Below are positions 14,167-63,071 of a DNA stretch of 64,000 nucleotides, piece after piece (within the stretch, counting starts at the first letter, position 1; each line of letters starts with the position of its first letter). The notes under the pieces were generated by a model. The model was not told the origin of the DNA. It saw only the letters and a program-made list of their open reading frames with translations, and did no database searches. The position numbers were made by a program, and so were the translations under genes. The stretch is from an uncultured Lachnospiraceae bacterium (GTDB lineage: Bacteria; Bacillota; Clostridia; Lachnospirales; Lachnospiraceae): positions 217-64,216 of the forward strand of contig CACWGK010000003.1 of assembly GCA_902760415.1 (NCBI GenBank), written 5' to 3'.

Positions 14167-14223
14167 TTTCATTTATCAATAACTATTAATTGATAAATCT
14201 TAGGAAATGTGAGGAAAATAAAT

Positions 14224-16992: not shown

Positions 16993-17075
16993 AAAATGAG
17001 TCACTTCTTTGCTCCGACGTAACAGCTGACTCAAAAATGAGTCAGCAGTTACGTCGAAGCAAGAGGTGACTCATT
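16993..17075. repeat. Palindromic repeat element, inverted-dimer copy A
   Basis: AAAATGAGTCAC...CTGACTCAAAAATGAGTCAGCAGTTACGTCG...GGTGACTCATT. It shares TGAGTCA/TGACTCA ends and the TTACGTC-GACGTAA core with copies at 30163, 40075, 57525 and 60722. It fills the gap between convergent stop codons. Confidence 0.9.
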
Positions 17076-17078
17076 CGT

Positions 17079-26292: not shown

Positions 26293-29200
26293 ATGATATC
26301 GAAGTTTAGTGTCAAACGACCATACACTGTATTCGTGGTTGTGGTTGCAGTAATTGTTGTTGGAATAGTTGCGCTGATGAGAATGACAGCGGATCTTCTT
26401 CCAGATATGAATCTTCCTTATGTTGTTGTTATAACAACTGATATGGGAGCCAGTCCTGAGACAGTAGAGAAAGAGGTTACAGCCCCGATAGAAGCCTCTC
26501 TTGCTACAACGTCTAATCTTAAGAATATTCAGTCTATGTCCTATAACAGCTACTCAACGGTAATCCTTGAGTATGAACAAAGTTCTAACATGGACGCCAC
26601 AATGATTGAGATTCAGCAGAGTCTGGATCAGATAGAAGGTTCATTTGGCGATTCTATCGGTACACCGATGGTTATGCAGCTTAATCCTGACATGCTTCCA
26701 GTTATGGTTGCTGCCGCAAATGTATCAGATATGGATTCTATAGAATTAACTGACTATATCGAATCAGACATTCTTCCACAGCTTGAATCTATCGAAGGTG
26801 TTGCTTCGGTTAGTGCTACTGGTGGTGTAACTGAGACAGTTCAGGTTACCATGAACCAGGATAAGATAGATAAGCTAAATGATAAGATTATGGCGGAGAT
26901 TGATGATCAGTTCCAGGATGCTAAGGATGAACTTCAGTCTTCTAAGGAAGATATAGAGAGTGGACAGTCACAGGTATCTTCTGGAAAGAAAACTCTTGCG
27001 AATTCTGTCAGTGAAAATCTTGCAACTCTGGAAAGTACACAGATAGAGCTATACCAGACAGAAGATGAACTTACTGAACAGAAAGAGACCTACCAGGATT
27101 TATATGATACTCTTGGTACAACTATTGAAACACTGAATACAACATATGACAGTGCATGTACTCTTGCAAATGGAATAGAATCACTAAGTTCTGTTATTTC
27201 CCTATATGATCAGGGGCTTCTGGATGATACAACATTTGCTGCTACTGCAGGAATGGATATCAATACAGCTAAAGCTTCCCTGGCAACATATACTGCACAG
27301 CTCGATGCTGTAAATGCTCAGATTAAGGAAAATACTGCTTCACTTGCAGACTACGATATAACAGTAAATACATATGAGGATCTTCCAACTGCTGTAGCTA
27401 CTCTTGAAGCTAAAAGAGTTGAGATTAACACGGGTATTGAAACTATCAATACTGCTATAGAAGAGGTTGAGTCTGGAAAGACTACAACAAGCGAGGCTAT
27501 AGAAGCTCTTAACAAGACAGGTATTGAGCAGTCAATCTCACTTGCTGAGACTTCAGCAACACTCTCACAGGGACTTACTAGTATTGAGAGTGCTGAGGAT
27601 ACACTTGATGAAACACTTGAATCCACAAAGGATGCTGCAGACTTAAATAATGTACTTTCTATAGATGTACTTAACAATCTTCTTAAGGCTCAGAACTTTG
27701 AGATGCCTGCAGGATATGCTTCTGGAAAGAATGCGTCTGATGGACAGTATCTTGTTAAGATTGGCGAAGACGTTACTGATGCTGAAGAACTCTCTAAGCT
27801 TATTCTTATAGATCTAAACATGGATAGTGTTGGAGTTATTAGACTTGAGGATGTTGCTGATGTAGAGCAGGTTGATGATTCTGCTGAAGTATATGCTAAG
27901 TTAAATGGTAGTCCTGGTATGCTCATTTCATTTGAGAAGCAGACAGGTTACTCAACTGGTGATGTTACAGATGTTATCTTAGATAAGTTCGAAAGCCTTG
28001 AGAGAACAGAAGATGAGGATCTTCATTTCTCTGTTCTGATGAATCAGGGTGTCTATATAGATTTGATCGTGAAGTCAATTCTTCAGAACATGCTCCTAGG
28101 TGCTGGACTTGCAATTATCGTTCTGATCATCTTCCTTCGCGATATCAGACCTACAATTATCATAGCGTGTGCGATTCCGCTTTCGGTTATATTCGCTATC
28201 GTTCTGATGTACTTTACAGATATCTCACTTAATATCATTTCTATGTCGGGACTCACTCTGGGTATAGGAATGTTGGTGGATAACTCAATCGTTGTTATCG
28301 AAAATATCTACCGACTTCGCAAGGAAGGCGAATCTATAAAGAAGGCGGCAGTTTACGGTGCGAGCCAGGTTGCTGGAGCTATCACTTCATCAACTATGAC
28401 AACTATGTGTGTATTCCTGCCAATCGTCTTCACTGAGGGACTTACAAGACAGCTCTTCGTAGACATGGGTCTTACGATAGCATTTACTCTTACAGCTTCT
28501 CTGCTTGTGGCCCTTACACTTGTTCCAGCTATGGCACAGGGACTTCTGAAAAATGTTAAAGAGAAGGAAGAGGGCACTGATGGAGCGTTCATGCGTTTCT
28601 ATGATAAGTTCCTTAGAGCTATGCTTAAGTTTAAGCCACTTGTGTTCCTCATAATGCTGCTTCTTCTTGGAGCTTCTGTCGCACTTGCACTTTCTCGTGG
28701 TACTGAGTTTATGCCGGAGATGCAGAGTGATCAGATTAATATCTCGATGTCGGCTCCTAAGGGCGAAAAGAGAACATTTGAGGAAATGACTGGATATGCT
28801 GATGAGCTGGTTGATAGACTTATGGAGATACCTGAGATAGAAACTCTTGGTGCCATGATCGGAAATGGTACGACTATGGGTGCTCTCAATATGTCTGTTG
28901 GAGACGATGTATCTATATATGTTCTCCTCAAGGAAGATACAAAGATAACTAATTCTGAAATCATAGATAAGATCAATAAGGCTGCTGAGGGTATTGACTG
29001 TGAGGTTGATGCTAGCGCTGAGATCATGGATATGAGTATGCTGACAGGTAGCGGTATCTCAGTTATGATCAAGGGACGCGATATGCAGGTTCTTCAGAAA
29101 CTTGCTCAGGAGTCTGCGGATGCACTTGCTGCTACTGATGGTATCGAAGAGGTTGATAATGGTCTCGACAACATGACCAAGACCTTCGTCATCACGGTAG

Positions 29201-30150
29201 ATAAGAAGAAGGCGGCAGAATATGGTATGACTGTTGCGCAGGTATTCAGCACTGTATCAGCTAAGCTTGCTTCTACATCAGCAACTACCGCTATTGAGAC
29301 TGACCTTAAGGATTATGATGTATTTGTTGCTACTGATGAGCAGTCAGAGATTACTATAGATGACTTAAAGAAACTTAAGTTTGAATATACTGATAAGGAA
29401 GAAAATGAAACTAAAGAGATTCCTCTTTCTAAGATAGTTACATTCTCTGAGGCAGAGGAATTGTCACAGGTTCAGCGTGATAATCAGAACAGATACATCA
29501 GTGTATCAGGTTCACTTAAGGAAGGCTATAACATAGGTCTTGTAGGTAGAAAGGCTCAGGCAAATCTCGACAAGATTGGTGTACCAGAGGGTTACTCTAT
29601 AACTCTTGAAGGTGAGAATCAGACTATAAATGATGCGATGGAGCAGGTAATGCTTATGATGCTTCTGGCTGTAATCCTCATTTATCTGATAATGGTTGCA
29701 CAGTTCCAGAGTCTTAAGTCACCATTTATCATAATGTTTACTATACCTCTTGCCTTCACAGGTGGATTCCTGGCATTGTTCCTTACAGGAAAGGCGGTTT
29801 CAGTTATTGCTATGATAGGTTTCGTAATGCTGGCCGGTATCATCGTTAACAATGGTATCGTACTGGTTGACTATGTTAATCAGCTTAGACGTGAAGGAAA
29901 GGCTAAGAAGGATGCTATCATTGAGTCAGCTAAGACAAGACTTCGTCCTGTACTTATGACAGCTCTTACAACCATCATCTCCATGTCAACCATGGCGGTC
30001 GGTATGGGTAAGGGAACTGAGATATCACAGCCTATGGCTATCGTAGTAGTAGGTGGTATGGTCTACGGTACAATACTTACACTTATCCTGGTGCCATGTC
30101 TCTATGATGCATTCAACAAAGAACGCGACATGACAGAAGAAGAAATCTAA
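26293..30150 (+). CDS. RND-family efflux transporter permease (AcrB/SwrC-like) with a large insertion in loop 1
   Basis: 12-TM RND architecture with the conserved GIGMLVDNSIVVIENI and GIIVNNGIVLVDY motifs. It is 1285 aa, versus about 1050 for typical members. Confidence 0.9.
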   Translation: MISKFSVKRPYTVFVVVVAVIVVGIVALMRMTADLLPDMNLPYVVVITTDMGASPETVEKEVTAPIEASLATTSNLKNIQSMSYNSYSTVILEYEQSSNMDATMIEIQQSLDQIEGSFGDSIGTPMVMQLNPDMLPVMVAAANVSDMDSIELTDYIESDILPQLESIEGVASVSATGGVTETVQVTMNQDKIDKLNDKIMAEIDDQFQDAKDELQSSKEDIESGQSQVSSGKKTLANSVSENLATLESTQIELYQTEDELTEQKETYQDLYDTLGTTIETLNTTYDSACTLANGIESLSSVISLYDQGLLDDTTFAATAGMDINTAKASLATYTAQLDAVNAQIKENTASLADYDITVNTYEDLPTAVATLEAKRVEINTGIETINTAIEEVESGKTTTSEAIEALNKTGIEQSISLAETSATLSQGLTSIESAEDTLDETLESTKDAADLNNVLSIDVLNNLLKAQNFEMPAGYASGKNASDGQYLVKIGEDVTDAEELSKLILIDLNMDSVGVIRLEDVADVEQVDDSAEVYAKLNGSPGMLISFEKQTGYSTGDVTDVILDKFESLERTEDEDLHFSVLMNQGVYIDLIVKSILQNMLLGAGLAIIVLIIFLRDIRPTIIIACAIPLSVIFAIVLMYFTDISLNIISMSGLTLGIGMLVDNSIVVIENIYRLRKEGESIKKAAVYGASQVAGAITSSTMTTMCVFLPIVFTEGLTRQLFVDMGLTIAFTLTASLLVALTLVPAMAQGLLKNVKEKEEGTDGAFMRFYDKFLRAMLKFKPLVFLIMLLLLGASVALALSRGTEFMPEMQSDQINISMSAPKGEKRTFEEMTGYADELVDRLMEIPEIETLGAMIGNGTTMGALNMSVGDDVSIYVLLKEDTKITNSEIIDKINKAAEGIDCEVDASAEIMDMSMLTGSGISVMIKGRDMQVLQKLAQESADALAATDGIEEVDNGLDNMTKTFVITVDKKKAAEYGMTVAQVFSTVSAKLASTSATTAIETDLKDYDVFVATDEQSEITIDDLKKLKFEYTDKEENETKEIPLSKIVTFSEAEELSQVQRDNQNRYISVSGSLKEGYNIGLVGRKAQANLDKIGVPEGYSITLEGENQTINDAMEQVMLMMLLAVILIYLIMVAQFQSLKSPFIIMFTIPLAFTGGFLALFLTGKAVSVIAMIGFVMLAGIIVNNGIVLVDYVNQLRREGKAKKDAIIESAKTRLRPVLMTALTTIISMSTMAVGMGKGTEISQPMAIVVVGGMVYGTILTLILVPCLYDAFNKERDMTEEEI

Positions 30151-30162
30151 TTCACATATACG

Positions 30163-30245
30163 AATGAGTCACCTTCCACGTTCGACGTAAAAGGTGACTC
30201 ATTTTTGAGTCACTTTTACGTCGAACGTGCGGGGTGACTCATTTT
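30163..30245. repeat. Palindromic repeat element, inverted-dimer copy B
   Basis: AATGAGTCACCTTCCACGTTCGACGTAAAAGGTGACTCATTTTTGAGTCACTTTTACGTCGAACGTGCGGGGTGACTCATTTT, located 12 nt after the RND gene stop. Confidence 0.9.
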
Positions 30246-39119: not shown

Positions 39120-39210
39120 TAACTGAATAAGATTATGATAAATGTGGCAAGTTGCCCGAGTATTTTGGCTCGGGCAAACTGTCACGTTTTTGAGGTATAG
39201 AGGATATAGT

Positions 39211-40347
39211 ATGGAAGTAAAAGATTTTTACTACGATCTCCCTGAGGAACTGATCGCACAGGATCCGCTGGAGAAGAGAGATGAGTCTCGCTTCATGGTG
39301 ATACACCGTGATACTGGTGAGATAGAACATAGGAAGTTTCATGATATTATTGAATATTTAAATCCTGGTGACTGCCTTGTCATTAACGATACCAAGGTTA
39401 TTCCTGCACGTCTTTTGGGCGAGAAGGAAGAGACGGGAGCTGCTATAGAGGTGCTTCTTTTGAAGGACGCGTCAGAAAGATATGCAGAACTTGCAAAATC
39501 AGAGAAGAATACTCGTATCTGGGAGTGCCTTGTTAAGCCTGGTAAGAAAATGAAGCCTGGTGCCCGCGTGGTCTTCGGCAAGGACGAAGTGACTGGAGAG
39601 GCTCTGCTTAGTGCCGAGGTTATCGATACAGTTGAAGAGGGAAATCGAATCATTCGTTTTGAGTATGACGGTATCTGGGAAGAGGTGCTGGATAAGTTAG
39701 GCGAAATGCCGCTCCCACCATATATAACACATAAGCTTCAAGATAAAACTCGTTATCAGACTGTATATGCGAAAAATGAGGGTAGTGCAGCCGCTCCTAC
39801 AGCAGGTCTTCATTTCACAAGTGAGCTTCTGAAGGAGATAGAAGATAAGGGCATAAAGATTGCAAGACTTACACTACATGTAGGACTTGGTACATTTCGA
39901 CCGGTTAAGGTAGAAAAGATAGAAGACCATCACATGCATACTGAGTACTATGAGTTAACTCAGGAAGCTGCTGATATAATAAATGAGACACGCGCCAAGG
40001 GGGGCAGAGTGATCTCAGTAGGAACTACAAGTACCAGAACTCTGGAGACAATCGGAACACTTCAGGGCCTTCACAAAAATGAGTCAGCAGTTACGTCCGA
40101 CGTAAAAAGTGACTCATTTTTACAGGAGATTAAACCGGCTTCGGGCTGGACTAATATATTTATATATCCTGGATATGAGTTCAAAGTTGTAGATTCCTTA
40201 ATAACAAACTTCCATTTGCCAGAGTCAACACTTATAATGTTAGTGTCTGCTTTCTATAACAGAGACGACGTTATGGCGGCATATGAGGAAGCTGTGAAGG
40301 AGAGATATAGATTCTTCTCCTTTGGGGATGCTATGATGTTGATCTAG
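39211..40347 (+). CDS. queA: S-adenosylmethionine:tRNA ribosyltransferase-isomerase
   Basis: [50 protein letters not shown] and [18 protein letters not shown] are all QueA hallmarks. The track ORF starts upstream at 39142, but homology begins at ATG 39211. Confidence 0.95.
40075..40122. repeat. Palindromic repeat element, monomer copy D, in-frame inside queA
   Basis: AAAAATGAGTCAGCAGTTACGTCCGACGTAAAAAGTGACTCATTTTTA is translated as [16 protein letters not shown]. It is near-identical to the copy at 60721-60768. Confidence 0.9.
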
Positions 40348-40383: not shown

Positions 40384-42204
40384 ATGAAAAATGTAAAAGC
40401 GGCTATAAAGCTATTTAGATATAATCTATTATATACCGTACTGTTTGAGTGTTTCCTCAAGACAGTATCATTTGCTGTGCTTATACCGCTGTATTATGTA
40501 TTTGTAAACTATGCAGTAAAGCTATCCGGAATATCATATCTGTCGAAGGAGACTGCGAAGAAGTTTTTTAAGGCTCCATCTACATATGCATTTCTCTTTG
40601 TAATGTTTTTATTCATATCAATGTGTATTATGGTAGAAGTTTCTGGAATCAGCTATGCCTATCATAGAGCACATTACCTTAAGAAGACGTCACCACTTAG
40701 GATGCTTCTGATTGGTATTAGATCTTCTATGAGAGTGCTTAGACCAAGAAATATGCCAATCTTTGTTACTACACTTTGCTATCTTCCGGTTATATCAAAT
40801 GTTATCTTAGTCTTTGATCTACTAAATATTCGTGCACCATATATTATAGATATTGTATCTGTAAATAAAGGGATAACTATCGCGGTAGCGGTTCTCTACA
40901 TATTGGTTGTCTTATATTCACTAAGATATACATTTATTCTTCATGTATTTAATGTGGAGAAGGTTAGTTTCAGAAAGGCTGTTGACAGGACAAAGGAGCT
41001 TCTGAAGGGAAAGCGTTTTAAGACAATAAGCGGTGTACTCGCGTGGGTTTTCCTTACAGTAGCGCTTCCTGCAGTAGTTAACTTCTACTATTCCGGTTCA
41101 ATACTTTCACTTGTACTTTCTTCGAAGTCTGCTGTAAAGGCTGCAACGCTAGCTTATGAGAGTATTAAGATAGTGCTATCATTTTTATATGTAGTAGCTG
41201 GACTTCCAGCTGTATATTCGTACATCTGTGCTTCTTTCTACAGCCTGCTTCCTAATGAAGAAGATAAGCCGAGTCTGGATGACTATGATGAGGTCAATAC
41301 AAAGAACCGTCGTCATAGGGAAGGTACAGTCATTGTTATCCTTACATGTATGGCTATCATATTAAATGTTGGCTTCTACATGCTAAAGCGCTATAATGTA
41401 ATCTCCGTCAATGTAGAGTATCTGGACAAGGTTACTATAACGGCTCATCGAGGCGACAGCTCCTCAGCTCCTGAGAATACTCTTGCTGCATTTGAGAAAG
41501 CTATTGAAAATGGAGCTGATATCATCGAGCTTGATGTAAGAGAGACGAAGGACGGCGAGATCGTCGTAATGCATGATGAGAATCTGAAACGTACCTGCGG
41601 TGTTAACAAGAAGGTTGGAAAGCTAACTTATGAGGAACTGCTCGAGTATAGTCCAACTGCTAAATGTAAAGGTGAGGATAAGGAGCTATATAAGGACGAG
41701 AAGATTCCAACTCTTAGAGAGGCTATAGAACTTGTCGGAGACCGTGCTATTATAAATATTGAACTGAAGCCAGCTAAGACTGATAAGAAGTTCGTTCAGA
41801 AGGTTGTCGAGATCATTCAGGAATATGAATACTATGACAACTGCTTAGTTACGTCTCTTAACTATGGTTCTATTAAGAAGATAAAGCTGAAAGATTCAAG
41901 AATTAAGACGGTATATACTATGGCAGTAGCTATGGGAGATTTCTATTCTCTGGAATATGCGGATGGCTTTAGTATAAAGGCGAGATATATTAATAATGAC
42001 GTTGTTAAGCAGGCTCACAGTCTGGGCAAGGAGGTTTATGCCTGGACTATAGATGATCCGAATACTCTGGAAAGCATGATGCTTATGGACGTTGATTCGA
42101 TCATTACCAATAAGCCAGCTGAGATGCGTAAGGCCATGTATGAGAATTACTATAGTGATACTCTGATACAGAGGCTGAATGAGTTCTTGTCTAATCAGAT
42201 ATAG
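40384..42204 (+). CDS. Membrane-anchored glycerophosphodiester phosphodiesterase
   Basis: About 330-aa polytopic N-terminal membrane domain, followed by the GDPD catalytic domain ITAHRGDSSSAPENTLAAFEKAIENGADIIELDVRETKDGEIVVMHD. Confidence 0.85.
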   Translation: MKNVKAAIKLFRYNLLYTVLFECFLKTVSFAVLIPLYYVFVNYAVKLSGISYLSKETAKKFFKAPSTYAFLFVMFLFISMCIMVEVSGISYAYHRAHYLKKTSPLRMLLIGIRSSMRVLRPRNMPIFVTTLCYLPVISNVILVFDLLNIRAPYIIDIVSVNKGITIAVAVLYILVVLYSLRYTFILHVFNVEKVSFRKAVDRTKELLKGKRFKTISGVLAWVFLTVALPAVVNFYYSGSILSLVLSSKSAVKAATLAYESIKIVLSFLYVVAGLPAVYSYICASFYSLLPNEEDKPSLDDYDEVNTKNRRHREGTVIVILTCMAIILNVGFYMLKRYNVISVNVEYLDKVTITAHRGDSSSAPENTLAAFEKAIENGADIIELDVRETKDGEIVVMHDENLKRTCGVNKKVGKLTYEELLEYSPTAKCKGEDKELYKDEKIPTLREAIELVGDRAIINIELKPAKTDKKFVQKVVEIIQEYEYYDNCLVTSLNYGSIKKIKLKDSRIKTVYTMAVAMGDFYSLEYADGFSIKARYINNDVVKQAHSLGKEVYAWTIDDPNTLESMMLMDVDSIITNKPAEMRKAMYENYYSDTLIQRLNEFLSNQI

Positions 42205-44135: not shown

Positions 44136-45404
44136 ATGAATCGTAGACAGCAGATAAAACTTGAAAATGCAAAAATCTTTGCTAGAAAGTATATATTCTC
44201 TGGTAGATATATAGTTAGAAATACACTTGCAGTTATGGGTCTCGCTACACTTGCAGGTGGAGCATACCTTACAGTACAGGTTGCTGGAACAGGAGTTGCT
44301 TCTGGCATGGCAGTAAATACTAAGGCTGAACAAGTTGAAGAGACTGAGGCAGAGCCTGAAGTTGAGACATACGCTATCCAGATTGGTGAGGATTCTCTTG
44401 TAAAGGCTGATTCAGTCGACGCACTCTATGTTCGTTTAGAGGGTGAGGACGTACTTACAGTTTCTAATGATGTTGATAGACTCACAAAGCCTGAGTACGA
44501 TATGACAGGTAAGTTCATCGTTACAACAGAGGGACTTAACGTCAGAGCTGAGGCTTCAGAAGATGGAAATATCCTTAAGGTTCTTAACACTGGTGATTAC
44601 GGTGATGTCGTAGGAACAGAGGGCGAGTGGACTATAGTTGCTCATCTTGATACAGAGGGATATGTTAAGACAGAATATATTGTTACTGATGATGAGGCAA
44701 CAAAGGTTGCTGAGAAGGCTGCATCTGATGGCGTAAGCTACAGAGAAGCACTTGGTGTTAAGGAAGTTCTCGTTGCTGATGCAAATAATCAGGAGCAGGC
44801 TACTACAGAAGTTGCAATAGATAGAAAAGTTGAGATAGATACTACAGAGGTTGCTAAGGAAGATACAACTAAGACAGGTTCTACTGAGACAACAACTCAG
44901 GCGCCTGCACAGGCTACAACAGAGGCGCCTACACAGGCTGCTACAGAAGCACCTACTCAGGCTCCAACAGAGGCGCCTACACAGGCTCCTACTGAGGCAC
45001 CTACAGAAGCTCCAACAGAAGCACCTACAGAGGCTACAGCAGTTGCATCTTCTGATCTTTATCTTCTTGCGGCTATTGTATATGCAGAGTCAGGTGGAGA
45101 GTGTTATGAAGGACAGCTTGCAGTTGCAAGTGTCGTAATGAATAGATTATATAGCGGTCAGTGGGGTGGCTCACTTTCAAGCGTTATATATGCACCTAGC
45201 CAGTTCTCTGGAGCTTATACATCAGCATTTCAGACTGCACTTTCAACAGGTGGTTCATCTACATCACTTCAGGCCGCTCAGGATGCTCTTAATGGAGCTA
45301 ACAATATCGGAGGCTACATGAGCTTCAGACCTACTTGGAACACACCTCAGTCAGTATATGACAGTGGTAACTATATTCAGATAGGAAATCATGTCTTCTA
45401 CTAA
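44136..45404 (+). CDS. SleB-type cell wall hydrolase with SH3-like domain and T/E/A/P/Q repeat linker
   Basis: N-terminal TM anchor, an SH3b-like segment (GLNVRAEASEDGNILKVLNTGDYGDVVGTEGEWTIV), and the C-terminal Hydrolase_2 motif LLAAIVYAESGGECYEGQLAVASVVMNR. Confidence 0.8.
   Translation: MNRRQQIKLENAKIFARKYIFSGRYIVRNTLAVMGLATLAGGAYLTVQVAGTGVASGMAVNTKAEQVEETEAEPEVETYAIQIGEDSLVKADSVDALYVRLEGEDVLTVSNDVDRLTKPEYDMTGKFIVTTEGLNVRAEASEDGNILKVLNTGDYGDVVGTEGEWTIVAHLDTEGYVKTEYIVTDDEATKVAEKAASDGVSYREALGVKEVLVADANNQEQATTEVAIDRKVEIDTTEVAKEDTTKTGSTETTTQAPAQATTEAPTQAATEAPTQAPTEAPTQAPTEAPTEAPTEAPTEATAVASSDLYLLAAIVYAESGGECYEGQLAVASVVMNRLYSGQWGGSLSSVIYAPSQFSGAYTSAFQTALSTGGSSTSLQAAQDALNGANNIGGYMSFRPTWNTPQSVYDSGNYIQIGNHVFY
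44889..45038 (+). repeat. Coding tandem repeat (TEAPTQA / TEAP units)
   Basis: Imperfect 12-21-nt repeats ACAGAGGCGCCTACACAGGCT encode TTQAPAQATTEAPTQAATEAPTQAPTEAPTQAPTEAPTEAPTEAPTEAT. Confidence 0.9.
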
Positions 45405-53756: not shown

Positions 53757-55802
53757 TTGATAAATGTATTAGAATTATTTGGAGGAATCGGCCTCTTCCT
53801 TTTCGGAATGAATCTTATGGGTTCGTCACTTAAGAAGCTGGCTGGTTCTGGACTAGAGAAGATACTCGCGACGCTCACAACGAGTAAGCGTAAAGGAGTC
53901 GGAGCCATAAAAGGCTGGGGACTCGGACTTGGCGTTACCGGAATTATTCAGAGTTCTGCCGCTACGACTATTATGCTGATAGGTTTTGTTAATGCAGGAA
54001 TTATGACCCTTGCTCAGGCAATTCCTGTTGTATATGGTTCGAATGTAGGTAGTACCGTTACAGCTCAGATCTTAAGACTGGGTGATCTTGGTTCGGGAAA
54101 TCTTGTACTTAAGCTGCTCAAGCCATCGTCTTTTGCTCCGATGCTTGTGGCAGTTGGTACATTTACATATCTTTTTACTAGAAAGCAAAAACTAAGGGAT
54201 ATTTGTGGTATCCTGGTTGGTCTTGGAACACTTTTCTATGGAATGACTATGATGGAGGAAGTCTTTGCTCCTCTTAAAGAGTCTGAAGCATTCCAGAACT
54301 TTTTTACATCTTTTAGCAATCCAATAATTGGTATACTTACTGGACTTATTCTTACTGCAATCATTCAAAGCTCCAGTGCTTCAGTTGGTATACTTCAGGC
54401 ACTTTCAGCAACTGGAAGTATCACTTATGGTATTGCGATTCCACTCATCATTGGTCAGAATATTGGTAAATGTATGACTATCCTTATTGGTAGTATTGGC
54501 GCTAACAAGAAGGCTAAGCGTGTTGCACTTAGTTATCTTCTTTTTAACATTATCGGTGCCATCGTCATTTCACTGATCATCTATGCACTGTACTATACGA
54601 TAGGACTTCCTTTCTTCGATAAGGTAGTAAATCGTGGTAATATAGCAAATATTCATCTTGGATTTAACCTTATAATCAGTGTGGTTCTGCTTCCTTTCTC
54701 TAAGCAGATGTCTAATCTCACTGGTAAGCTTCTTAGGGATTCTGATGAGGTTTATGGTGATGAGGAGCTGAGACATCTTGATGATATGCTTCTTAAGACG
54801 CCTGGTATCGCGCTGATGCAGTGTAAGAACCTTATGAAGGTTATGGCTGAGAAGATAGAAGAAAATTATGACCTCGCTATAGGTCTCTTCCAGAATTATG
54901 ATAAGGCTGTATTTAATACTCTCTTAGAAAATGAGAACTTTATAGATAGATGTGAGACGGCGCTATCTTCATATATTGTAAAGATTGAGAGAAAGCGTCT
55001 GACTATAGATAATCAAAGTATGCTGATCGCTATGCTGAATACAATAGGCGATTATGAGCGTATCGGTGACTATTCGATGAAGATTGCCTATACGGCTGAA
55101 GAGTGTCACGATGAGAAGATAACATTTTCAGCTAAAGGTAAGAGAGAGCTGGATATCATCTCTGAGGCTGTGCATAATATCCTGAATATGACATTTGATG
55201 CGGCAGATAATGAGGATATGAATGAGGCTATAAGGATTCAGCCTCTTGCTAAGACTGTCAGCGATATGAAGAGACTTCTGGAGTCTCATCATATAGAGCG
55301 TCTGCAGGATGGTGACTGCGGCGTTAGTGGTGGTACAAAGCTTTATGATCTTGCAAATAGCTTCCAGAAGATTGCAAATCATGCTAAGAGTATATCTCGA
55401 AATATCATCACAAGACTTACAAGAGATGTGAATCTGGATGCAAAGCACGGAAAGCTGCTGGATAAGAGCAGTGAAGAGTATCTATCTCTTGAAAGCTACT
55501 ATCGTACTAAGTATATAGATCCTATGCTAAATGGTGACATAGCCGGAACTTCTGCTATAGATGATGGTGATACAGAAGCTGAATCTTCTGATGTAAGCTA
55601 CACGACTTCAGATTCAAAGAAGGATTCTAAAGCAGCTAAGAAAGAAGGAAGGGACAGCAAGAAGGAAGCTGGAAAGAAGGCTAAGGACAGTAAGAAGGAG
55701 GCCGGAAAGAAGGCTAAGGAAGAAAAGAAAGAAGCAAAGGACAGCAAGAAGGAAGCTGGAAAGAAAGCTAAGGACGGCAAGAAGGATAAGAAAGATAGCT
55801 AA
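53757..55802 (+). CDS. Na/Pi cotransporter family protein with PhoU-like domains and Lys-rich repeat tail
   Basis: N-terminus LELFGGIGLFLFGMNLMGSSLKKLAG and the second repeat TAIIQSSSASVGILQAL are typical of NptA-family proteins. The cytoplasmic half has PhoU-like helices (IGDYERIGDYS, ANHAKSISRNI). TTG start. Confidence 0.85.
   Translation: MINVLELFGGIGLFLFGMNLMGSSLKKLAGSGLEKILATLTTSKRKGVGAIKGWGLGLGVTGIIQSSAATTIMLIGFVNAGIMTLAQAIPVVYGSNVGSTVTAQILRLGDLGSGNLVLKLLKPSSFAPMLVAVGTFTYLFTRKQKLRDICGILVGLGTLFYGMTMMEEVFAPLKESEAFQNFFTSFSNPIIGILTGLILTAIIQSSSASVGILQALSATGSITYGIAIPLIIGQNIGKCMTILIGSIGANKKAKRVALSYLLFNIIGAIVISLIIYALYYTIGLPFFDKVVNRGNIANIHLGFNLIISVVLLPFSKQMSNLTGKLLRDSDEVYGDEELRHLDDMLLKTPGIALMQCKNLMKVMAEKIEENYDLAIGLFQNYDKAVFNTLLENENFIDRCETALSSYIVKIERKRLTIDNQSMLIAMLNTIGDYERIGDYSMKIAYTAEECHDEKITFSAKGKRELDIISEAVHNILNMTFDAADNEDMNEAIRIQPLAKTVSDMKRLLESHHIERLQDGDCGVSGGTKLYDLANSFQKIANHAKSISRNIITRLTRDVNLDAKHGKLLDKSSEEYLSLESYYRTKYIDPMLNGDIAGTSAIDDGDTEAESSDVSYTTSDSKKDSKAAKKEGRDSKKEAGKKAKDSKKEAGKKAKEEKKEAKDSKKEAGKKAKDGKKDKKDS
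55653..55799 (+). repeat. Coding 33-nt tandem repeat (DSKKEAGKKAK units)
   Basis: GACAGCAAGAAGGAAGCTGGAAAGAAGGCTAAG at 55653 and 55686, then again at 55740 after a 21-nt spacer, with partial units flanking. Confidence 0.9.
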
Positions 55803-56327: not shown

Positions 56328-57530
56328 ATGAGTTTAAATGATACGCCATCGGGAGAACGTTTAAGAATAAGTTTTTTTGGAAAAAGAAATGCTGGTAAGT
56401 CCAGCCTTGTAAATGCGGTAACAAATCAGCAGCTGGCTGTGGTTTCAGATACTTTGGGAACTACTACGGATCCAGTGCAGAAGGCTATGGAACTTCTGCC
56501 TTTGGGACCTGTTCTTATAACAGATACTCCTGGATTTGATGATTCTGGCAAGCTTGGTGAACTCCGGGTTAAGCGTACTAAGCAGATACTGAACAAGACT
56601 GATATAGCAATTCTGGTTACGGATGCGACAAGACAGTCGGATGTGACAGAACTAGAGCTGCTTAGAATATTTGAAGAGAAGTCGATTCCATTTATCATAG
56701 CAAAGAATAAGTCGGATCTACTTGGAGAAGTGCCTGTTAACGAAGATGGCGCTGGAAATGTTATATATGTCAGTGCAACTGAAAAGACGGGGATCGAAGA
56801 GCTGAAGGAGAGAATTGGACATCTGATTCCTTCTGATGGAAATGGACTGAAACTTGTTGGCGATATTATAGAGCCGGGGCAGCTGGTGGTTCTCGTGATT
56901 CCTATAGATAAGGCGGCACCAAAGGGAAGACTTATCTTGCCACAGCAGCAGGCGATTAGAGATATACTCGATGCTGGTGCATTTGCAATCACGACTAGAG
57001 ATACAGAACTTGCTGATTTACTTGAGAAACTCAGGGCCTCTGGACAAAATCCAGACCTGGTAATCACTGATAGTCAGGCATTTGAAAAGGTTAATAAGAT
57101 TGTTCCAAAGGGTATCGAGCTTACTTCATTTTCGATACTGATGGCGCGTTATAAGGGATTCCTTGATACAGCTGTGAAGGGTGCCAGAGCGATTGACGAG
57201 CTAAGCGATGGTGACAAGATTCTGATAAGTGAAGGCTGCACGCACCATAGACAGTGTGGAGATATCGGAACTGTGAAGCTTCCGAAATGGCTATCGGAAC
57301 GAACAGGAAAGAATCTTGTGATCGAGACCACGTCGGGAGCAGATTTCCCAGACAGTCTTGAAGAATACAAGTTAGTAGTACATTGTGGCGGCTGTATGTT
57401 AAGTGCGAGAGAAATGGTATATCGCATGAAGTGTGCTGAGGATATGAACGTTCCATTCACCAACTACGGAATAGCCATAGCCTACATGAAGGGAATCCTC
57501 GATAGAACCATCGCCCCAATATATAAATGA
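56328..57530 (+). CDS. hydF: [FeFe]-hydrogenase H-cluster maturation GTPase HydF
   Basis: G1 GKRNAGKSS, G3 DTPG, G4 NKSD, and the C-terminal cluster motif EGCTHHRQCGDIG ... VHCGGC. It is colinear with Thermotoga HydF as I recall it. Confidence 0.9.
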   Translation: MSLNDTPSGERLRISFFGKRNAGKSSLVNAVTNQQLAVVSDTLGTTTDPVQKAMELLPLGPVLITDTPGFDDSGKLGELRVKRTKQILNKTDIAILVTDATRQSDVTELELLRIFEEKSIPFIIAKNKSDLLGEVPVNEDGAGNVIYVSATEKTGIEELKERIGHLIPSDGNGLKLVGDIIEPGQLVVLVIPIDKAAPKGRLILPQQQAIRDILDAGAFAITTRDTELADLLEKLRASGQNPDLVITDSQAFEKVNKIVPKGIELTSFSILMARYKGFLDTAVKGARAIDELSDGDKILISEGCTHHRQCGDIGTVKLPKWLSERTGKNLVIETTSGADFPDSLEEYKLVVHCGGCMLSAREMVYRMKCAEDMNVPFTNYGIAIAYMKGILDRTIAPIYK

Positions 57531-57608
57531 GTCACCTATCACGTCCGACGTAAATGGTGACTCAAAAATGAGTCAGCATTTACGTCGGACGTGGAAAGTG
57601 ACTCATTT
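57525..57608. repeat. Palindromic repeat element, inverted-dimer copy C (overlaps hydF stop codon)
   Basis: AAATGAGTCACCTATCACGTCCGACGTAAATGGTGACTCAAAAATGAGTCAGCATTTACGTCGGACGTGGAAAGTGACTCATTT. The hydF TGA (57528-57530) lies within the element terminus. Confidence 0.9.
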
Positions 57609-57634
57609 GGTTTGAGATTTTTTGGAGAATTAGC

Positions 57635-58723
57635 ATGAGTAATGAGAAGTTTTCATTAATAGATAAGTTGGCGGAGCAGCATTCTTTATCCCGAGCTGAG
57701 TGGACGACTCTTCTCGGAGGTGACGAGGCTTCGCTCTTTGAGAGGGCTGGGAAACTTCAGCCTGAAGAAGAGGAAGTGCTTCAGTACGCGGCTGCAAAGG
57801 CTAGGAAGGTAGCGACTTCAGTATATGGCAGTGATGTATATATCAGAGGAATTGTCGAGTTCAGCAATACCTGCAATAAGAACTGCTACTACTGCGGCCT
57901 TCGTGCCGGTAACTCGAAGCTTCAGAGATATCGCCTCACCGTGGAAGATATTCTCGAATGCTGCGAGGATGGCTATAAGTATGGATTTAGAACCTTCGTC
58001 TTGCAAAGTGGAGAAGATCCTTACTATACAACAGAAATGATATGCGACCTCGTAAAGCGTCTTAAGCAGGACTATCCAGATTGTGCTGTGACTCTTTCCC
58101 TTGGGGAGAAGTCATACGAAGAGTATAAGGCCTATCGTGAGGCGGGAGCTGATAGATATTTGCTAAGACATGAGACTGCAAATGAGGAGCATTACGGAAA
58201 ACTTCATCCAGAGAATATGTCCTGGAAGAACCGAATGAGATGTCTAAGAGATCTTAAATCTCTTGGATACCAGACAGGATGCGGAGTGATGATTGGTTCA
58301 CCGAATCAGACGGTCGAATGCCTTGTAGACGACATGATGTTTATGCAGGAGTTTGAGCCGGAAATGATAGGACTCGGTCCATTTCTTCCACATAGTGATA
58401 CACCATTTAAGGAAGAACCTAAAGGTTCATATGAGATGACGCTGTTCCTGATCAGTCTATGTCGTCTGATGCTGCCACACGCACTTATTCCAGCTACGAC
58501 AGCACTTGGAACCATAAAGCCTGACGGACGTGAACAGGGAATCCTTGCTGGCGCAAATGTCATAATGCCAAATCTTTCTCCTGTTCAGGTGAGGGACAAA
58601 TATATGCTTTACGACAACAAGATATGCACAGGAGATACGTCATCGGAGTGCCGTGATTGTATCGAGCGTCGCATGGAGCTGATTGGATATAATGTTGTAA
58701 TCTCTAGAGGAGATTACAAGTAA
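57635..58723 (+). CDS. hydE: [FeFe]-hydrogenase H-cluster radical SAM maturase HydE
   Basis: Radical SAM motif [37 protein letters not shown] and [10 protein letters not shown] closely match HydE rather than BioB or HydG. Confidence 0.9.
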
Positions 58724-58740
58724 TATATAAAGGAAATGAT

Positions 58741-59490
58741 ATGATTAAGTTTGCAATATATGGAAAAGGCGGAATAGGAAAGTCTACACTGTCGTCGAAT
58801 CTTTCTGCGGCCCTCGCAAAGAGAGGACTCACAGTTATGCAGATTGGCTGTGATCCAAAGGCTGATTCAACGTCACTTCTATGTCCGAAGGAGAAGATAA
58901 CAACTGTTCTTGATCTTGTTAGAAGTGGTAAGCCATTTACCCTGGAGGATATGGTCAAGGAAAGTACAGCAGGCGTTTTATGTGTTGAGGCAGGAGGCCC
59001 GGTTCCTGGACTTGGTTGTGCAGGCCGAGGCATTATAAATGCTTTGGAATCGCTGGAGCAGAAGGGCGCTTATGATGTGTATAAGCCTGATGTCGTCATT
59101 TACGATGTACTCGGAGACGTGGTCTGCGGAGGCTTCACTATGCCTATGCGTAAGGGCTACGCGGATAAGGTATACATAGTAACATCGGGTGAGAAGATGG
59201 CGATATACGCGGCTGCCAATATAGCTATGGCGGTTGAGAACTTCAAGAAGCGTGACTACGCAAAACTTGGTGGAATCATACTGAACTGCCGTGGAGTGGA
59301 AAATGAGATAGACAATGCTGAGACTCTTGCAAAGGATTTCAGTACAAGTGTTCTGCAGGTTATTCCAAGAAGCCCACTGTTTGAAAAGGCCGAGGCTGAA
59401 GGAAAGACTGTAATCGAACTCTTCCCGGAAAGCGATGTTGCGGAGAAGCTGCTTTCGCTTGCAGATATAGTTATCGAGCAGGGTGAATAA
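58741..59490 (+). CDS. NifH-like ATPase / nitrogenase-like reductase component 2 (copy 1)
   Basis: P-loop [10 protein letters not shown]. Both [4Fe-4S] ligand contexts are conserved (GLGCAGRG and [12 protein letters not shown]). It is only 249 aa and starts 18 nt after hydE. Confidence 0.85.
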
Positions 59491-59547
59491 GACAGATAGA
59501 ATTAGGATAGATAGATTTAAGTTATATAGAATGTAAGGAAGAAGAGT

Positions 59548-60975
59548 ATGCTGGAAGCGTTACATACAAAAGAAAATCGAATACCAGAACCAGTTCTTCT
59601 TAAAGATATAGACTTTGAGACCCCATTTTACGAAGGACTTCAGTATAATCCACCAGCGCGTGGTGTGTGGAATATAGTCCACACAGGTATGCTGATTCCA
59701 GAGGCACATCAGGTATATGTCTGTGCACAGGGGTGTCTCAGGGGTGTTATACTCACGGCGGCTGAGATGAATCTGATGGATAGGATGTCCTGGGTATCAC
59801 TTCGTGAGAAGGATATGTGGAATGGAGAAATGGAGTCCCGCGTGGTTGAAGGCGTTGCTCACATAGTGAGTCAAATGGAGAACCGCCCAAGATGTATACT
59901 TGTTTACCTTAGCTGTATGCATATGTTTGAGGGCTGTGACTTCAAGGTGATTGCTGATGAGCTGTCCGAGAGATTTCCTGGTACAACATTTGTTGACTGC
60001 TATATGACGCCAACTATGAGAAAAAGTATCTCGCCGGACGCTATGATGAAGGCTAGTCTCTATGATCCGATAATTCCTCTACCTAAGAAGGAGAATCTGG
60101 TGGGACTCGTTGGCTGCGATAGAGAGACAGACAGAACCTCAGATATCTTCGAGATTGCAAAGCTGGCAGGACGCGACATATGGGAGATTAATTCCTGCGA
60201 GACTTATGATCAGTACCTAGAACTTGGTAGTGCTGCGCGTCTTATATCATATCTTCCGGTCGCAAATGTGGGAGTCAGAAAGCTGGCTGGTCGAATCGGT
60301 GCTGAGTGGAAATATCTACCTATAAGCTACGACTTCGAGGAATGCAAGGAAAATGTATGGCAGCTGGCAGAGTTCCTGACAGGGACTGAACTAAGAGGAC
60401 AGCAAGCAGATAAAGAGAAGAATGTTATAGAACATATTGAGGAATATATCTCTGAAAAGAGTAAACTGGCGGACGAAGCATTCAAAAAAGCTCATGCGAA
60501 GATTAAGGATACACCGATAGTTATAGATTATTCGGCAACCCCTCGTCCTCTCGGACTTGCGCTGCTGCTTACAAAGTATGGATTTAATGTAACTACCATT
60601 TATACAGATATATTCCAGAAGGAAGAACGTGCAGCGTACGAAGAACTTCTGGAGCTGAGGCCAGAAATGAAGATATATTCCACCATGGACCCAGCCATGC
60701 GATTTGCTGACAACGAATATGAAAATGAGTCAGCATTTACGTCGGACGTAAAAAGTGACTCATTTTTAAAGGGGGATAAGATACTAGCTATCGGTCAGAA
60801 GGCAGCATACTTTGTGCATACACCGTATTTCGTAAATATTGCTGATGGCGGTGGAATGTATGGAATCGACGGACTTAGACGAATGGCAGAGGAATTGCTG
60901 GATGCCTATAAGAAAACAAAGGATACTAAGAAGTTGATAAGTCATAAGGGTATCGGTTGCGCCAGCTGTTTGTAG
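59548..60975 (+). CDS. Nitrogenase component-1-type (NifD/K/E/N, BchN/B-like) oxidoreductase subunit
   Basis: 475 aa. The Cys motifs VCAQGC and LSCMHMFEGCDF sit where component-1 proteins carry cluster ligands. The LVGLVGCDRE...DIFEIAKLAG pattern is typical of the family. Confidence 0.7.
   Translation: MLEALHTKENRIPEPVLLKDIDFETPFYEGLQYNPPARGVWNIVHTGMLIPEAHQVYVCAQGCLRGVILTAAEMNLMDRMSWVSLREKDMWNGEMESRVVEGVAHIVSQMENRPRCILVYLSCMHMFEGCDFKVIADELSERFPGTTFVDCYMTPTMRKSISPDAMMKASLYDPIIPLPKKENLVGLVGCDRETDRTSDIFEIAKLAGRDIWEINSCETYDQYLELGSAARLISYLPVANVGVRKLAGRIGAEWKYLPISYDFEECKENVWQLAEFLTGTELRGQQADKEKNVIEHIEEYISEKSKLADEAFKKAHAKIKDTPIVIDYSATPRPLGLALLLTKYGFNVTTIYTDIFQKEERAAYEELLELRPEMKIYSTMDPAMRFADNEYENESAFTSDVKSDSFLKGDKILAIGQKAAYFVHTPYFVNIADGGGMYGIDGLRRMAEELLDAYKKTKDTKKLISHKGIGCASCL
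60721..60768. repeat. Palindromic repeat element, monomer copy E, in-frame inside the Nif-like gene
   Basis: GAAAATGAGTCAGCATTTACGTCGGACGTAAAAAGTGACTCATTTTTA is translated as [16 protein letters not shown]. Confidence 0.9.
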
Positions 60976-61011
60976 AATAAAAGATAGAAAAAAAGATAGA
61001 AAGAATCAGAA

Positions 61012-62283
61012 ATGAATCAAACTGCGAGAAGAATATCAATATATGCTGCGGACACATCGGGATTTTGCTCTGCTCTATATGAGTATGGCGGAATGACCGT
61101 AATTCATGATGCATCCGGCTGCAACTCGACATATACAACTCACGACGAACCTCGCTGGTACGATAAGGACAGTATGATGTACATATCAGGGTTCACTGAG
61201 AAAGACGCAATCATGGGAAATGACGAGCGCTTTGTCCATGATCTTGTACTGGCGGCAAAGGAATTAAATCCGAAGTTTATCGCTATATGTGCGTCACCTC
61301 TTCCTGCTATGACCGGCGTCGATCTTGAAGCAATAGCCTACGAGGTTGAAGCAGAGACAGGCATACCAAGCTTTAATGTGAGAACAAATGGAATGCAGAG
61401 CTATATAACAGGCGCGGGAAATGCATTTGTGGAGCTCGCTAAGCATTTTACAAAACCTGTAAATAAGGTAAGACCACTAAGGACTGGTTCAAATGTCGGA
61501 CTCCCTGGAGCGGCAGAAGTGCTGGTAAATGTACTCGGCCTCACACCACTGGATTTCCCTCTTGAAGGTACAGTGTGGGCTCTTAGAAAATGGCTCGCAG
61601 AACATGAACTGATGGTAAATGCAACCGTCGGCATGGATACGTCCTTAGAACAGATTGAAGTTCTTGCCGAAGCTGATGTAAATCTGGTTGTTAGTTCAGT
61701 CGGCATGCCGCTGGCGGAGTATCTATATAATGAGTATGGAATCCCGTACGTAGTGGGCGCTCCATTTGGAGATATTAAGTCCACATCGATTTTAGGATTT
61801 AATGTAAAGGTGGCAGCGACTGATGGCGAGAATGCACTCAGTTGTAAAATGCTGAATCCTTGCGGCAGAAAGATAGCAATCATTGGTGAGAGCGTAACAT
61901 CAAGATCCCTCGCAAATGCAATCTATCAGGAGTTCAACATCTCTGCAAGAGTTCTGGAAAGCGTGGGGGATGGATTTATGCAGGCCCTAAATAAGCTAGT
62001 GGATCAGAAGCTCTGGGCAGGACAATTCGATAATGATATTAGCGAACAGCTGGATGATGTGTCCTGCGACGATGAGGATATACTGGAGCAGGAAATCCAG
62101 AAGTCCGATATAATAATCGGCGACCCGCTCTTTGAACCGATATGCTACGGAAAGACATTTATAAGACTTCCTCATATGGCATTTTCGGGAAGATGTTTCA
62201 CTAAGGAAGAAGTGCAACTCATTGGCACGCCACTTAGGGAGACATCCGTTGGAAAAGCTTTAGCAAAGACTCTGGGAAAGTAA
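61012..62283 (+). CDS. Nitrogenase component-1-type oxidoreductase subunit (partner)
   Basis: 423 aa. VIHDASGCNS (the H-x3-G-C motif) and AICASPLPAMTGVD (the C...G-x-D motif) are characteristic of the Oxidored_nitro family. Confidence 0.75.
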   Translation: MNQTARRISIYAADTSGFCSALYEYGGMTVIHDASGCNSTYTTHDEPRWYDKDSMMYISGFTEKDAIMGNDERFVHDLVLAAKELNPKFIAICASPLPAMTGVDLEAIAYEVEAETGIPSFNVRTNGMQSYITGAGNAFVELAKHFTKPVNKVRPLRTGSNVGLPGAAEVLVNVLGLTPLDFPLEGTVWALRKWLAEHELMVNATVGMDTSLEQIEVLAEADVNLVVSSVGMPLAEYLYNEYGIPYVVGAPFGDIKSTSILGFNVKVAATDGENALSCKMLNPCGRKIAIIGESVTSRSLANAIYQEFNISARVLESVGDGFMQALNKLVDQKLWAGQFDNDISEQLDDVSCDDEDILEQEIQKSDIIIGDPLFEPICYGKTFIRLPHMAFSGRCFTKEEVQLIGTPLRETSVGKALAKTLGK

Positions 62284-62315
62284 CATTTTACTAAGATAAT
62301 AGAGGTATAAGATAA

Positions 62316-63071
62316 ATGATTAAAATTGCGATATATGGCAAAGGTGGAATCGGAAAGTCTACAGTTACATCAAATCTTTCGGCCGCACTTGCTTCGCTTG
62401 GTAAAAAGGTAATACAGATTGGCTGTGATCCTAAGGCGGATTCTACTGCAAATCTTCTGTCGGGAAGCCCTGTAACTCCAGTTATGAATTATATGCGTGA
62501 TACAGGAGAGGAACCAACAAGCCTTGATGAGATAGCAAAGGAAGGCTTTGGCGGAGTAGTCTGCATAGAGACAGGCGGCCCAACTCCAGGTCTTGGCTGT
62601 GCAGGTAGAGGTATCATTACCACATTTTCCCTCCTGGAAGAGTTAGAGCTCTACAAGAAGTACCAGCCGGATGCTGTTCTATATGATGTTCTAGGTGACG
62701 TAGTATGTGGTGGTTTTGCGGCACCAATCAGAGAAGGCTATGCTGATAAGGTTCTCATAGTTACGTCTGGAGAAAAAATGGCGCTTTATGCGGCCAACAA
62801 CATAAATACGGCAGTTAAGAACTTTGAAGACAGAAGCTACGCAAAAGTTCGCGGTATAGTAATGAACAGGCGTGCTGTTGAAGGAGAAGAGGAGAAGGTT
62901 CGCGCCTTCGCAGAGTCTTCAGGGCTTGATATAGTAGCTGATATCCCACGTACAAATGATATTATTCATTACGAGGATATGGGCAAGACAGTAATCGAAG
63001 GTGATCCTAGCCTTGAAGTAAGTAAGAGATTCCTTGCGCTGGCTCAGCTCCTTATCGATGAAGATGAATAA
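62316..63071 (+). CDS. NifH-like ATPase / nitrogenase-like reductase component 2 (copy 2)
   Basis: [18 protein letters not shown] and [12 protein letters not shown] are all conserved. It is 251 aa and a paralogue of 58741-59490. Confidence 0.85.

Follow-up and report, generated by a model that had tools for sequence, protein, structure and literature searches.

In-frame copy of a palindromic repeat, probably of REP/REPIN type, in queA of an uncultured Lachnospiraceae bacterium

The queA gene of an uncultured rumen Lachnospiraceae bacterium reads straight through a short palindromic repeat, and we consider it likely that this repeat is a single unit of a RAYT-associated family of the REP/REPIN type (repetitive extragenic palindromes and their inverted doublets; RAYT, REP-associated tyrosine transposase) that inserted in frame into the gene. 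The DNA analyzed, called here the window, is a 64,000-nucleotide (nt) stretch of contig CACWGK010000003.1 in assembly GCA_902760415.1, positions 217 to 64,216. A sequence-only reading of the window had proposed an in-frame palindromic insert in queA, and it is supported in substance by comparisons with QueA structures, with the closest sister species, Lachnospiraceae bacterium AC2031, and with rumen metagenome contigs. Two features are central.

39211 to 40347, plus strand: queA, encoding tRNA preQ1(34) S-adenosylmethionine ribosyltransferase-isomerase, 378 residues, intact, host of the insert (PF02547, PDB 1YY3, and the ratio of nonsynonymous to synonymous substitution rates, dN/dS)
40075 to 40122, plus strand: single palindromic unit, probably of REP type, in frame in queA as K289-L304 (family profile, hairpin fold, and absence from the PDB and AC2031 QueA proteins)

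The queA copy and its host gene

The open frame of queA spans 39142-40347, and the ATG at 39211 is its likely start because the protein N terminus from that point matches all homologues. As 40075 lies 864 nt (288 x 3) beyond 39211, the repeat copy (AAA AAT GAG TCA GCA GTT ACG TCC GAC GTA AAA AGT GAC TCA TTT TTA) is read as codons 289-304, with the sequence and frame exactly as first described. It is a nested palindrome, with outer arms AAAAATGAGTCA / TGACTCATTTTT around an inner TTACGTC-C-GACGTAA, and its predicted RNA fold reaches -19.5 kcal/mol (z = -5.5), a stability matched by none of 200 shuffled sequences. The insert falls between the helix ending TLETIG and the next strand, where its translation would give a peptide of some 16 residues, hydrophilic in character. 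The segment between the flanking QueA motifs, counted as 29 residues in the sequence-only reading, is 31 residues long, and the "roughly a dozen" given there for Bacillus subtilis is 13 in PDB 1YY3.

Neither distant nor sister orthologues have the repeat. A HMMER alignment with B. subtilis QueA (1YY3, E = 7e-122) opens gaps of 3 and 15 residues, the second exactly opposite the insert peptide, while Thermotoga maritima QueA (1VKY) spans the site with about 5 residues; three solved QueA structures are without the segment. In AC2031, whose QueA is 93% identical over aligned columns, the site reads TLQNLTREDDIKPA and the palindrome is absent at the DNA level. A homologous segment of the same length in all orthologues would have meant that nothing had been inserted, and it is lacking from 1YY3, 1VKY, and AC2031 alike.

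The host gene is intact, as had been supposed from its appearance. Its product matches PF02547 with 490.6 bits over profile positions 1-322 of 322, which, with the conserved motifs and the unbroken open reading frame (ORF), places the predicted protein in the QueA family. The dN/dS of queA is 0.025 against AC2031 and 0.036 (dS 0.063) against a conspecific strain represented by the 196-kb JGI contig Ga0256405_10000210 (locus L052), which is 98.8% identical to the window. Since that strain shares the identical insert despite this divergence, purifying selection on queA has continued since the insertion, and values of about 0.03 speak against a pseudogene. All 29 QueA variants of 99-100% identity, drawn from NCBI, ENA, JGI, and Logan assemblies with contigs up to 281 kb, carry the identical insert peptide. 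Assemblies are known to break at repeats, and the RAYT-like gene described below is in many cases on short contigs, but the presence of the insert in 29 variants from independent assemblies excludes an assembly artifact. The wider alternative of a mis-assembly, a chimeric contig, or a decaying queA pseudogene must also contend with the insert in Ga0256405_10000210 and with the intact, full-length, and constrained gene, and we give it almost no weight.

QueA varies in other ways among related sequences. One homologue (P0097) has an insert of about 50 residues, a tandem repeat (TEGAGVGTR..), at the same loop-2 position as the insert in the window. Another (P0029), on a 1.9-kb contig, equals the QueA of the window minus 31 internal residues, a deletion that is possibly an artifact of assembly or gene calling. 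In a different variable loop (LLLKDAS to KNTRxWECL, at about 39466-39519 of the window), near-identical alleles of a sister species (L012 1256-1384 versus L013 345-425) differ cleanly by the presence or absence of 48 nt. The L012 insert, CCAGGGCTCGATTCCAACGGAATCGACACGACTCGTACCGAGTCGAGCC, is a two-hairpin palindrome, is in frame as PGLDSNGIDTTRTESS, and is nested within the palindrome AAGTCAACGGGAC..GTCTGTTTGACTT; a search for further copies in the fetched loci, viral contigs, and the 21 kb surrounding the gene found none. The queA gene of L014 has a still larger composite insert of 38 amino acids in this loop.

A dispersed repeat family and its copies within genes

The queA palindrome is one of several in the window. 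A search for the 47-nt copy with up to 3 mismatches located a second copy at 60721-60767, identical at 44 of 47 nt, where 0 were expected by chance, and a relaxed pattern of the arms found 6 units against 0.01 expected. Repeat finding together with a profile hidden Markov model (HMM) gave 8 units at 5 window sites, namely 3 inverted doublets and 2 singlets, the latter being the copies in queA and at 60721. The remaining sites, and the second host gene, are as follows.

16993 to 17076, no strand: inverted doublet (REPIN-like), directly 3' of the stop codon (16990-16992) of the ORF at 14209-16992; hairpin -57 kcal/mol, z = -13.1
30162 to 30245, no strand: inverted doublet, 12 nt past the stop of an RND/AcrB-like ORF (26293-30150); hairpin -60.8 kcal/mol, z = -11.9
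57524 to 57608, no strand: inverted doublet at the 3' end of hydF; hairpin -60.2 kcal/mol, z = -13.6
59548 to 60975, plus strand: ORF of 475 residues resembling nitrogenase component-1-type oxidoreductases, host of the second unit (PF00148, 47.5 bits; homologue alignment)
60721 to 60767, plus strand: second single unit, in the same orientation and frame as the queA copy; profile 53.4 bits; hairpin -21.3 kcal/mol, z = -6.9

Outside the window the family is abundant. A JGI pattern scan of rumen metagenome contigs (93 loci) yielded 255 units in about 130 distinct arrays, of which 78 are doublets, 51 singlets, and 1 a triplet, and the 196-kb contig of the same species holds at least 13 units. The family profile HMM was built from 155 distinct 47-nt units, the number found in these metagenome contigs, and has the consensus aaaAATGAGTCAcctnttACGTCgGACGTaaaaggTGACTCAttttt, a nested palindrome with a core of 37 nt that extends to 47 nt when the A and T runs are included. 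The queA copy is the top match to this profile in the window (54.3 bits, E = 4.7e-16) and is therefore an undecayed family member rather than a chance likeness. By its counts in the window and the metagenome loci, the family is a short dispersed palindrome of the kind found in REP/REPIN-RAYT systems, whose imperfect palindromes measure about 20-40 nt.

An exact-pattern scan of 185,579 species genomes returned matches only in Lachnospiraceae AC2031 and NE2001 and in one Amycolatopsis palindrome. The last, gtcttgaaTGAGTCATTCAGGACGTGGGACGTCTTGAATGACTCAttcaagac, is an AT-rich perfect palindrome within a 420-codon open frame of the high-GC actinomycete Amycolatopsis kentuckyensis (NZ_JBGDMD010000003.1; L001 4103-4139), probably a chance likeness between palindromes. 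The unit was not found in viral contigs, and Rfam reported no family at the gathering threshold anywhere in the window.

Both the pairing and the placement of units resemble those of known REP families. Each window doublet folds as one hairpin of about 40 bp (-57 to -61 kcal/mol), and the inner bases, which are specific to each locus, are complementary between the two halves; such paired inverted units are the arrangement of REPINs and bacterial interspersed mosaic elements, and they make up 78 of the 130 arrays. Among 118 arrays with adequate flanks, 94 have unidirectional and 10 convergent neighbors, 1 has divergent neighbors, and 8 lie inside ORFs. Arrays lie a median of 10 nt from the flanking ORF's 3' end, and within 20 nt of it in 76 of 114 cases, so that the units, as expected of REPs, are mostly extragenic and near gene 3' ends. 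The contact can be closer still: the stop codon of hydF (56328-57530), a TGA at 57528-57530, is supplied by the first TGAGTCA arm of the doublet at 57524-57608.

A few units lie within genes, always in one frame. Orthologues of the nitrogenase-like ORF have a loop 8-16 amino acids shorter at the site of the second unit, and AC2031 has no palindrome there. In related contigs, a TagH-like ABC-transporter ATPase carries in-frame units in the linker after its ATPase domain, one in L030 (1149-1185) and two in L016 (1724-1802), and a SASA/esterase-like gene carries one (L026 and L090, minus strand). The two ATPase units of L016 are separated by a 5-nt spacer, giving a 42-nt period that keeps the frame, whereas intergenic doublets have a 4-nt spacer and a 41-nt period. 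These genes bear out the expectation, voiced when only the window had been read, that other coding sequences with a NESA[VF]-type peptide would be found, one within the window and the others outside it.

Every in-gene copy uses the frame x-N-E-S-x-x-T-S-D-V-x-x-D-S-F. This frame (frame 0) is free of stops in 134 of the 155 units in both orientations, while frame 1 is open in roughly a third of units and frame 2 in none, closed as it is by the TGA in aaTGAgtca. Given such a filter, the common peptide is what survives and is not evidence of a designed coding module. About 4 genes are affected among about 115 distinct arrays, and roughly 3-4% of arrays are intragenic. A likeness between the right flanks of the two in-gene copies of the window (ACAGGAGATTAA versus AAAGGGGGATAA) was taken as chance, since the other 49 singlets do not share it.

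The hairpin in queA might instead be kept for a role at the level of nucleic acid, perhaps as an intragenic attenuator or partial terminator, as a stability or RNase element, or as a site to which a protein binds, with its coding compatibility secondary; it might then tune queA and the downstream GDPD-family gene (40384-42204). We regard this as unlikely. The A-run, stem, and T-run of the unit are arranged as in a bidirectional terminator, and family members sit just past stop codons, but a simple terminator scan calls neither the queA unit nor the second in-frame unit nor the doublets, save for an inner fragment at 30194-30213, leaving position and shape as all that suggests a terminator-like function. 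The queA copy is undecayed, its peptide is invariant in the 29 variants, and two strains differing at 6% of synonymous sites have it unchanged; at a dS of 0.063, however, only about 0.7 synonymous differences are expected in 48 nt, and the identity between strains therefore carries no weight. Sister species do without the unit, and its presence in four unrelated genes fits tolerated insertion better than gene-specific regulation.

Several other observations concern the window itself. Among the loci from Ga0256405_10000210 (L019, L052, and others), no pattern-matching locus corresponds to window 60721-60767, the fetched locus stopping at window-equivalent 59098; in that strain the unit in the nitrogenase-like gene may be mutated or absent, the latter a possible empty site. 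The surrounding gene cluster (56328-62455) resembles a nitrogenase-like or maturase-type system. It comprises HydF, two ORFs of the nitrogenase component-1-like kind (59548-60975 and 61012-62283), a radical-SAM protein (57635-58723), and a pair of NifH-like ATPases, paralogues that begin at 58741 and 62316 and share 81% identity across the first 77 nt. Elsewhere, in-frame coding tandem repeats occur at 44857-45048 (12-nt period, rich in Thr, Ala, Pro, Gln, and Glu) and at 55620-55786 (21-33-nt periods, rich in Lys, Glu, Ala, Gly, and Asp).

A RAYT-like transposase and comparison with known repeats

In AC2031, an ORF of 266 amino acids (L002 1610-2407) is bracketed by doublets of the family at 1524-1600 and 2425-2501, one ending 10 nt before its start and the other beginning 15 nt after its stop. 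The protein matches Pfam Y1_Tnp with 55.7 bits, and its top NCBIfam match is the model for REP-associated tyrosine transposases (NF047646, REP_Tyr_transpos). The residues of NH-x-H and Y-x-x-x-NP, histidines and a tyrosine among them, do not vary among 94 homologues. An AlphaFold2 model with a predicted local distance difference test score (pLDDT) of 85.7 finds as its top PDB fold match 4ER8 (E = 3.7e-6; target-normalised template modelling score, 0.64), the REP-associated tyrosine transposase of Escherichia coli in complex with a REP hairpin, with the IS608, ISDra2, and IS200 transposases next. The same gene with the same doublet flanks occurs in two metagenome contigs (L030 and L042). The L002 protein is a divergent RAYT-like Y1 transposase.

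Homologous RAYT-like genes on other Lachnospiraceae contigs (51-61% identity) are flanked by palindromes of their own that differ from the queA family. A doublet-flanked Y1 gene whose relatives have their own palindromes is the signature of a REPtron, and it suggests that pairs of REPs and RAYTs are co-diversifying across rumen Lachnospiraceae and Butyrivibrio. The flanks of the RAYT-like gene in L109 (about 150-265 and 1017-1100) read ATGAGTCA-..GGCTTTGAGCC..-TGACTCAT, with the same outer arms as the queA family and a different core; those of a Y1_Tnp gene in L110/L111 read GATGACAG-tttttcacctgatgaaaaa-CTGTCATC, an unrelated palindrome.

Proteobacteria have well-characterized REP/RAYT systems and REPIN doublets (Nunvar 2010, PMC2817692; Bertels and Rainey 2011, PMC3116915), and the Lachnospiraceae family shares most of their traits. 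Its units are short imperfect palindromes, mostly in inverted doublets that make one long hairpin; their place is just past gene 3' ends, chiefly where the neighbors are unidirectional or convergent, and in some cases the upstream gene takes its stop codon from the repeat. The repeats flank a gene for a Y1 HUH transposase, related transposases go with different palindromes, and a small minority of units are in frame within genes for known proteins, tRNA modification enzymes included. In contrast to REPs and REPINs, the unit has a nested palindromic structure and is 37 nt long (47 nt with the A and T runs). The Lachnospiraceae transposase, at about 250-270 amino acids with a C-terminal helical extension, is longer than the RAYT of 4ER8 (chain of 165 amino acids), and the host lineage is clostridial whereas described REP families are mostly proteobacterial.

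Intragenic REPs are not new. A survey of GTAG- and CGTC-tagged REPs found that, in several species, a minority lie wholly within ORFs of known proteins, tRNA-modifying enzymes among them (Di Nocera 2013, PMC3733652), and intragenic REPs have been reported from Opitutus as well as from many Proteobacteria (PMC3733652). Firmicutes are absent from that survey (PMC3733652), although RAYT group 1 has been noted in Clostridia as well (PMC5581495). Our literature search, outside of which most subscription journals lay, found nothing on palindromic repeats in Lachnospiraceae. In-frame REPs are thus already on record in many other bacteria, and the present case falls in a taxon for which we found no description. 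The GTAG/CGTC superfamily is defined by an unpaired end tetranucleotide, a stem of 8-9 bp, and a loop of 4-5 nt (Di Nocera 2013, PMC3733652). Assignment to the CGTC-tagged REPs, suggested by the central ACGTC of the unit, was rejected: the CGTC of the consensus is central and paired with GACG, there is no terminal GTAG, and the stem and loop geometry differs.

The sequence-only reading had filed the insert as behaving like the palindromic elements of Rickettsia (Rickettsia palindromic elements, RPEs). The in-frame colonization on which this rested holds: like RPEs (Ogata et al. 2000, as cited in PMC10969869 and PMC3733652), the palindromes occur in frame in unrelated housekeeping genes, adding a peptide while the host gene stays functional. 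In-frame colonization is, however, no hallmark of Rickettsia, given the intragenic REPs of Proteobacteria and Opitutus, and a REP/REPIN-type repeat with a RAYT-like transposase fits better. Classic RPEs are about 150 bp long, with nearly half of the copies within ORFs (PMC10969869), whereas the present unit is 47 nt, few of its arrays are intragenic, it has no sequence relationship to RPEs, and a transposase is associated with it. With a Lachnospiraceae host and so low an intragenic fraction, membership in the RPEs was rejected, and the resemblance is one of behavior only. Rickettsial RPE-4 and RPE-6 have themselves been identified as CGTC REPs, without a dedicated transposase (PMC3733652).

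A further comparison is with the SPRITE or terminator-like repeats and the MITEs (miniature transposable elements with inverted repeats) of Firmicutes (PMC10969869), which resemble the family as dispersed hairpins with A/T-run flanks at gene ends in a Gram-positive genome. The family differs from them in that the terminator scan does not call its units and in its association with a Y1 rather than a DDE transposase. Being palindromic throughout, the unit has inverted termini as a MITE does; the 51 singlets are without flanking direct duplications, terminal inverted repeats derived from an insertion sequence were not identified, and no parent insertion sequence with DDE-type terminal repeats was seen.

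The insertion weighed, and its meaning

Because the same doublets bracket the transposase gene in AC2031 and related contigs, we infer that a single-strand-specific Y1 (HUH) enzyme of the RAYT type mobilizes the family, whose usual state is that of inverted doublets immediately past gene ends. Insertions within genes would survive only in an indel-tolerant loop or linker, when a multiple of three bases in length, and when read in the one frame of the palindrome that, whichever the orientation, is reliably free of stops; the queA copy lies in such a loop, has such a length, and is read in that frame. Its insertion would then have been mediated by the transposase, the window's own species would be expected to have a RAYT, and the added loop is probably exposed at the surface and neutral in function.

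A number of observations count against this account. The queA gene of AC2031 is shorter by a net 42 nt (14 amino acids) rather than by 47-48 nt, the loop that holds the insert is hypervariable across the clade (16-31 residues), and clusters of near-identical QueA sequences include no empty-site allele. In the sequence-only reading the excess length of the loop matched a 48-nt element; the loop is indeed much shorter in the solved structures and in AC2031, but on these alignments the coincidence with the repeat appears close rather than exact. The AlphaFold2 model of QueA, from a 28-sequence alignment, is poor (mean pLDDT 62; predicted template modelling score, 0.55) and cannot show a surface loop: residues 292-302 of the insert are low-confidence coil with pLDDT <50, but much of the protein is equally low. 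On the side of the transposase, the NF047646 match of 43.6 bits is below the curated cut-off of 80, so the curated RAYT sequence model does not recognize the protein, and PDB sequence searches with the RAYT-like protein, whether as a single sequence or as a 25-sequence profile, gave no match. The gene itself was found in AC2031 and the two metagenome contigs; the window lacks it, and none of the copies is demonstrably from the window's species. Finally, classical REPs end in an unpaired GTAG or CGTC tag (PMC3733652), which the queA family does not have.

Some of these facts would also suit a history in which the segment came from another copy in the genome through recombination, gene conversion, or template switching, or took the place of an older, decayed copy in the loop, without any transposition. 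The net difference from AC2031 is not the length of a unit, the two in-gene copies of the window are each other's closest relatives, and no target-site duplication is visible. In a more distant species (L015), moreover, the loop is of similar length, with a right half like that of the unit and the same flank (..GACGAA..AAGTCCACTCAGTTC-CAGGAGATTAAACC versus GACGTAAAAAGTGACTCATTTTTA-CAGGAGATTAAACC), and it may be an old decayed copy. That likeness was judged by eye, however, transposition of the IS200/IS605 type by Y1 enzymes likewise leaves no target duplication (PMC6006769), and the family flanks a dedicated RAYT-like gene. We consider copying without transposition very unlikely, and insertion of a family unit remains the explanation that we favor.

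A bolder proposal is that, in this group of rumen Lachnospiraceae, RAYT-associated palindromes are more than tolerated junk and could be a recurrent source of variation in protein loops and linkers. It is prompted by a unit that can be coded in the same stop-free frame in both orientations, can expand in frame (42 versus 41 nt), and is undecayed in genes of essential pathways, and by the other, unrelated palindromic inserts that are present or absent in a second loop in the queA genes of sister species. We think it unlikely; if true, it would suggest either selection for the codability of the repeat or a role for intragenic hairpins at the level of nucleic acid.

The finding reveals no new kind of element or mechanism. 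For annotation, it means that loops of 15-16 residues in QueA, nitrogenase-like, ABC ATPase, and esterase-like proteins are derived from repeats and are not features of these families; the same repeats probably also fragment assemblies of metagenome-assembled genomes. With one open frame in both orientations, and with a 42-nt period within a gene as opposed to 41 nt elsewhere, the family offers a natural experiment on how reading frames filter selfish palindromes. The REP/REPIN-RAYT system, and with it the rare addition of peptides to housekeeping proteins, is also extended to Gram-positive rumen anaerobes, for which we found neither described before.

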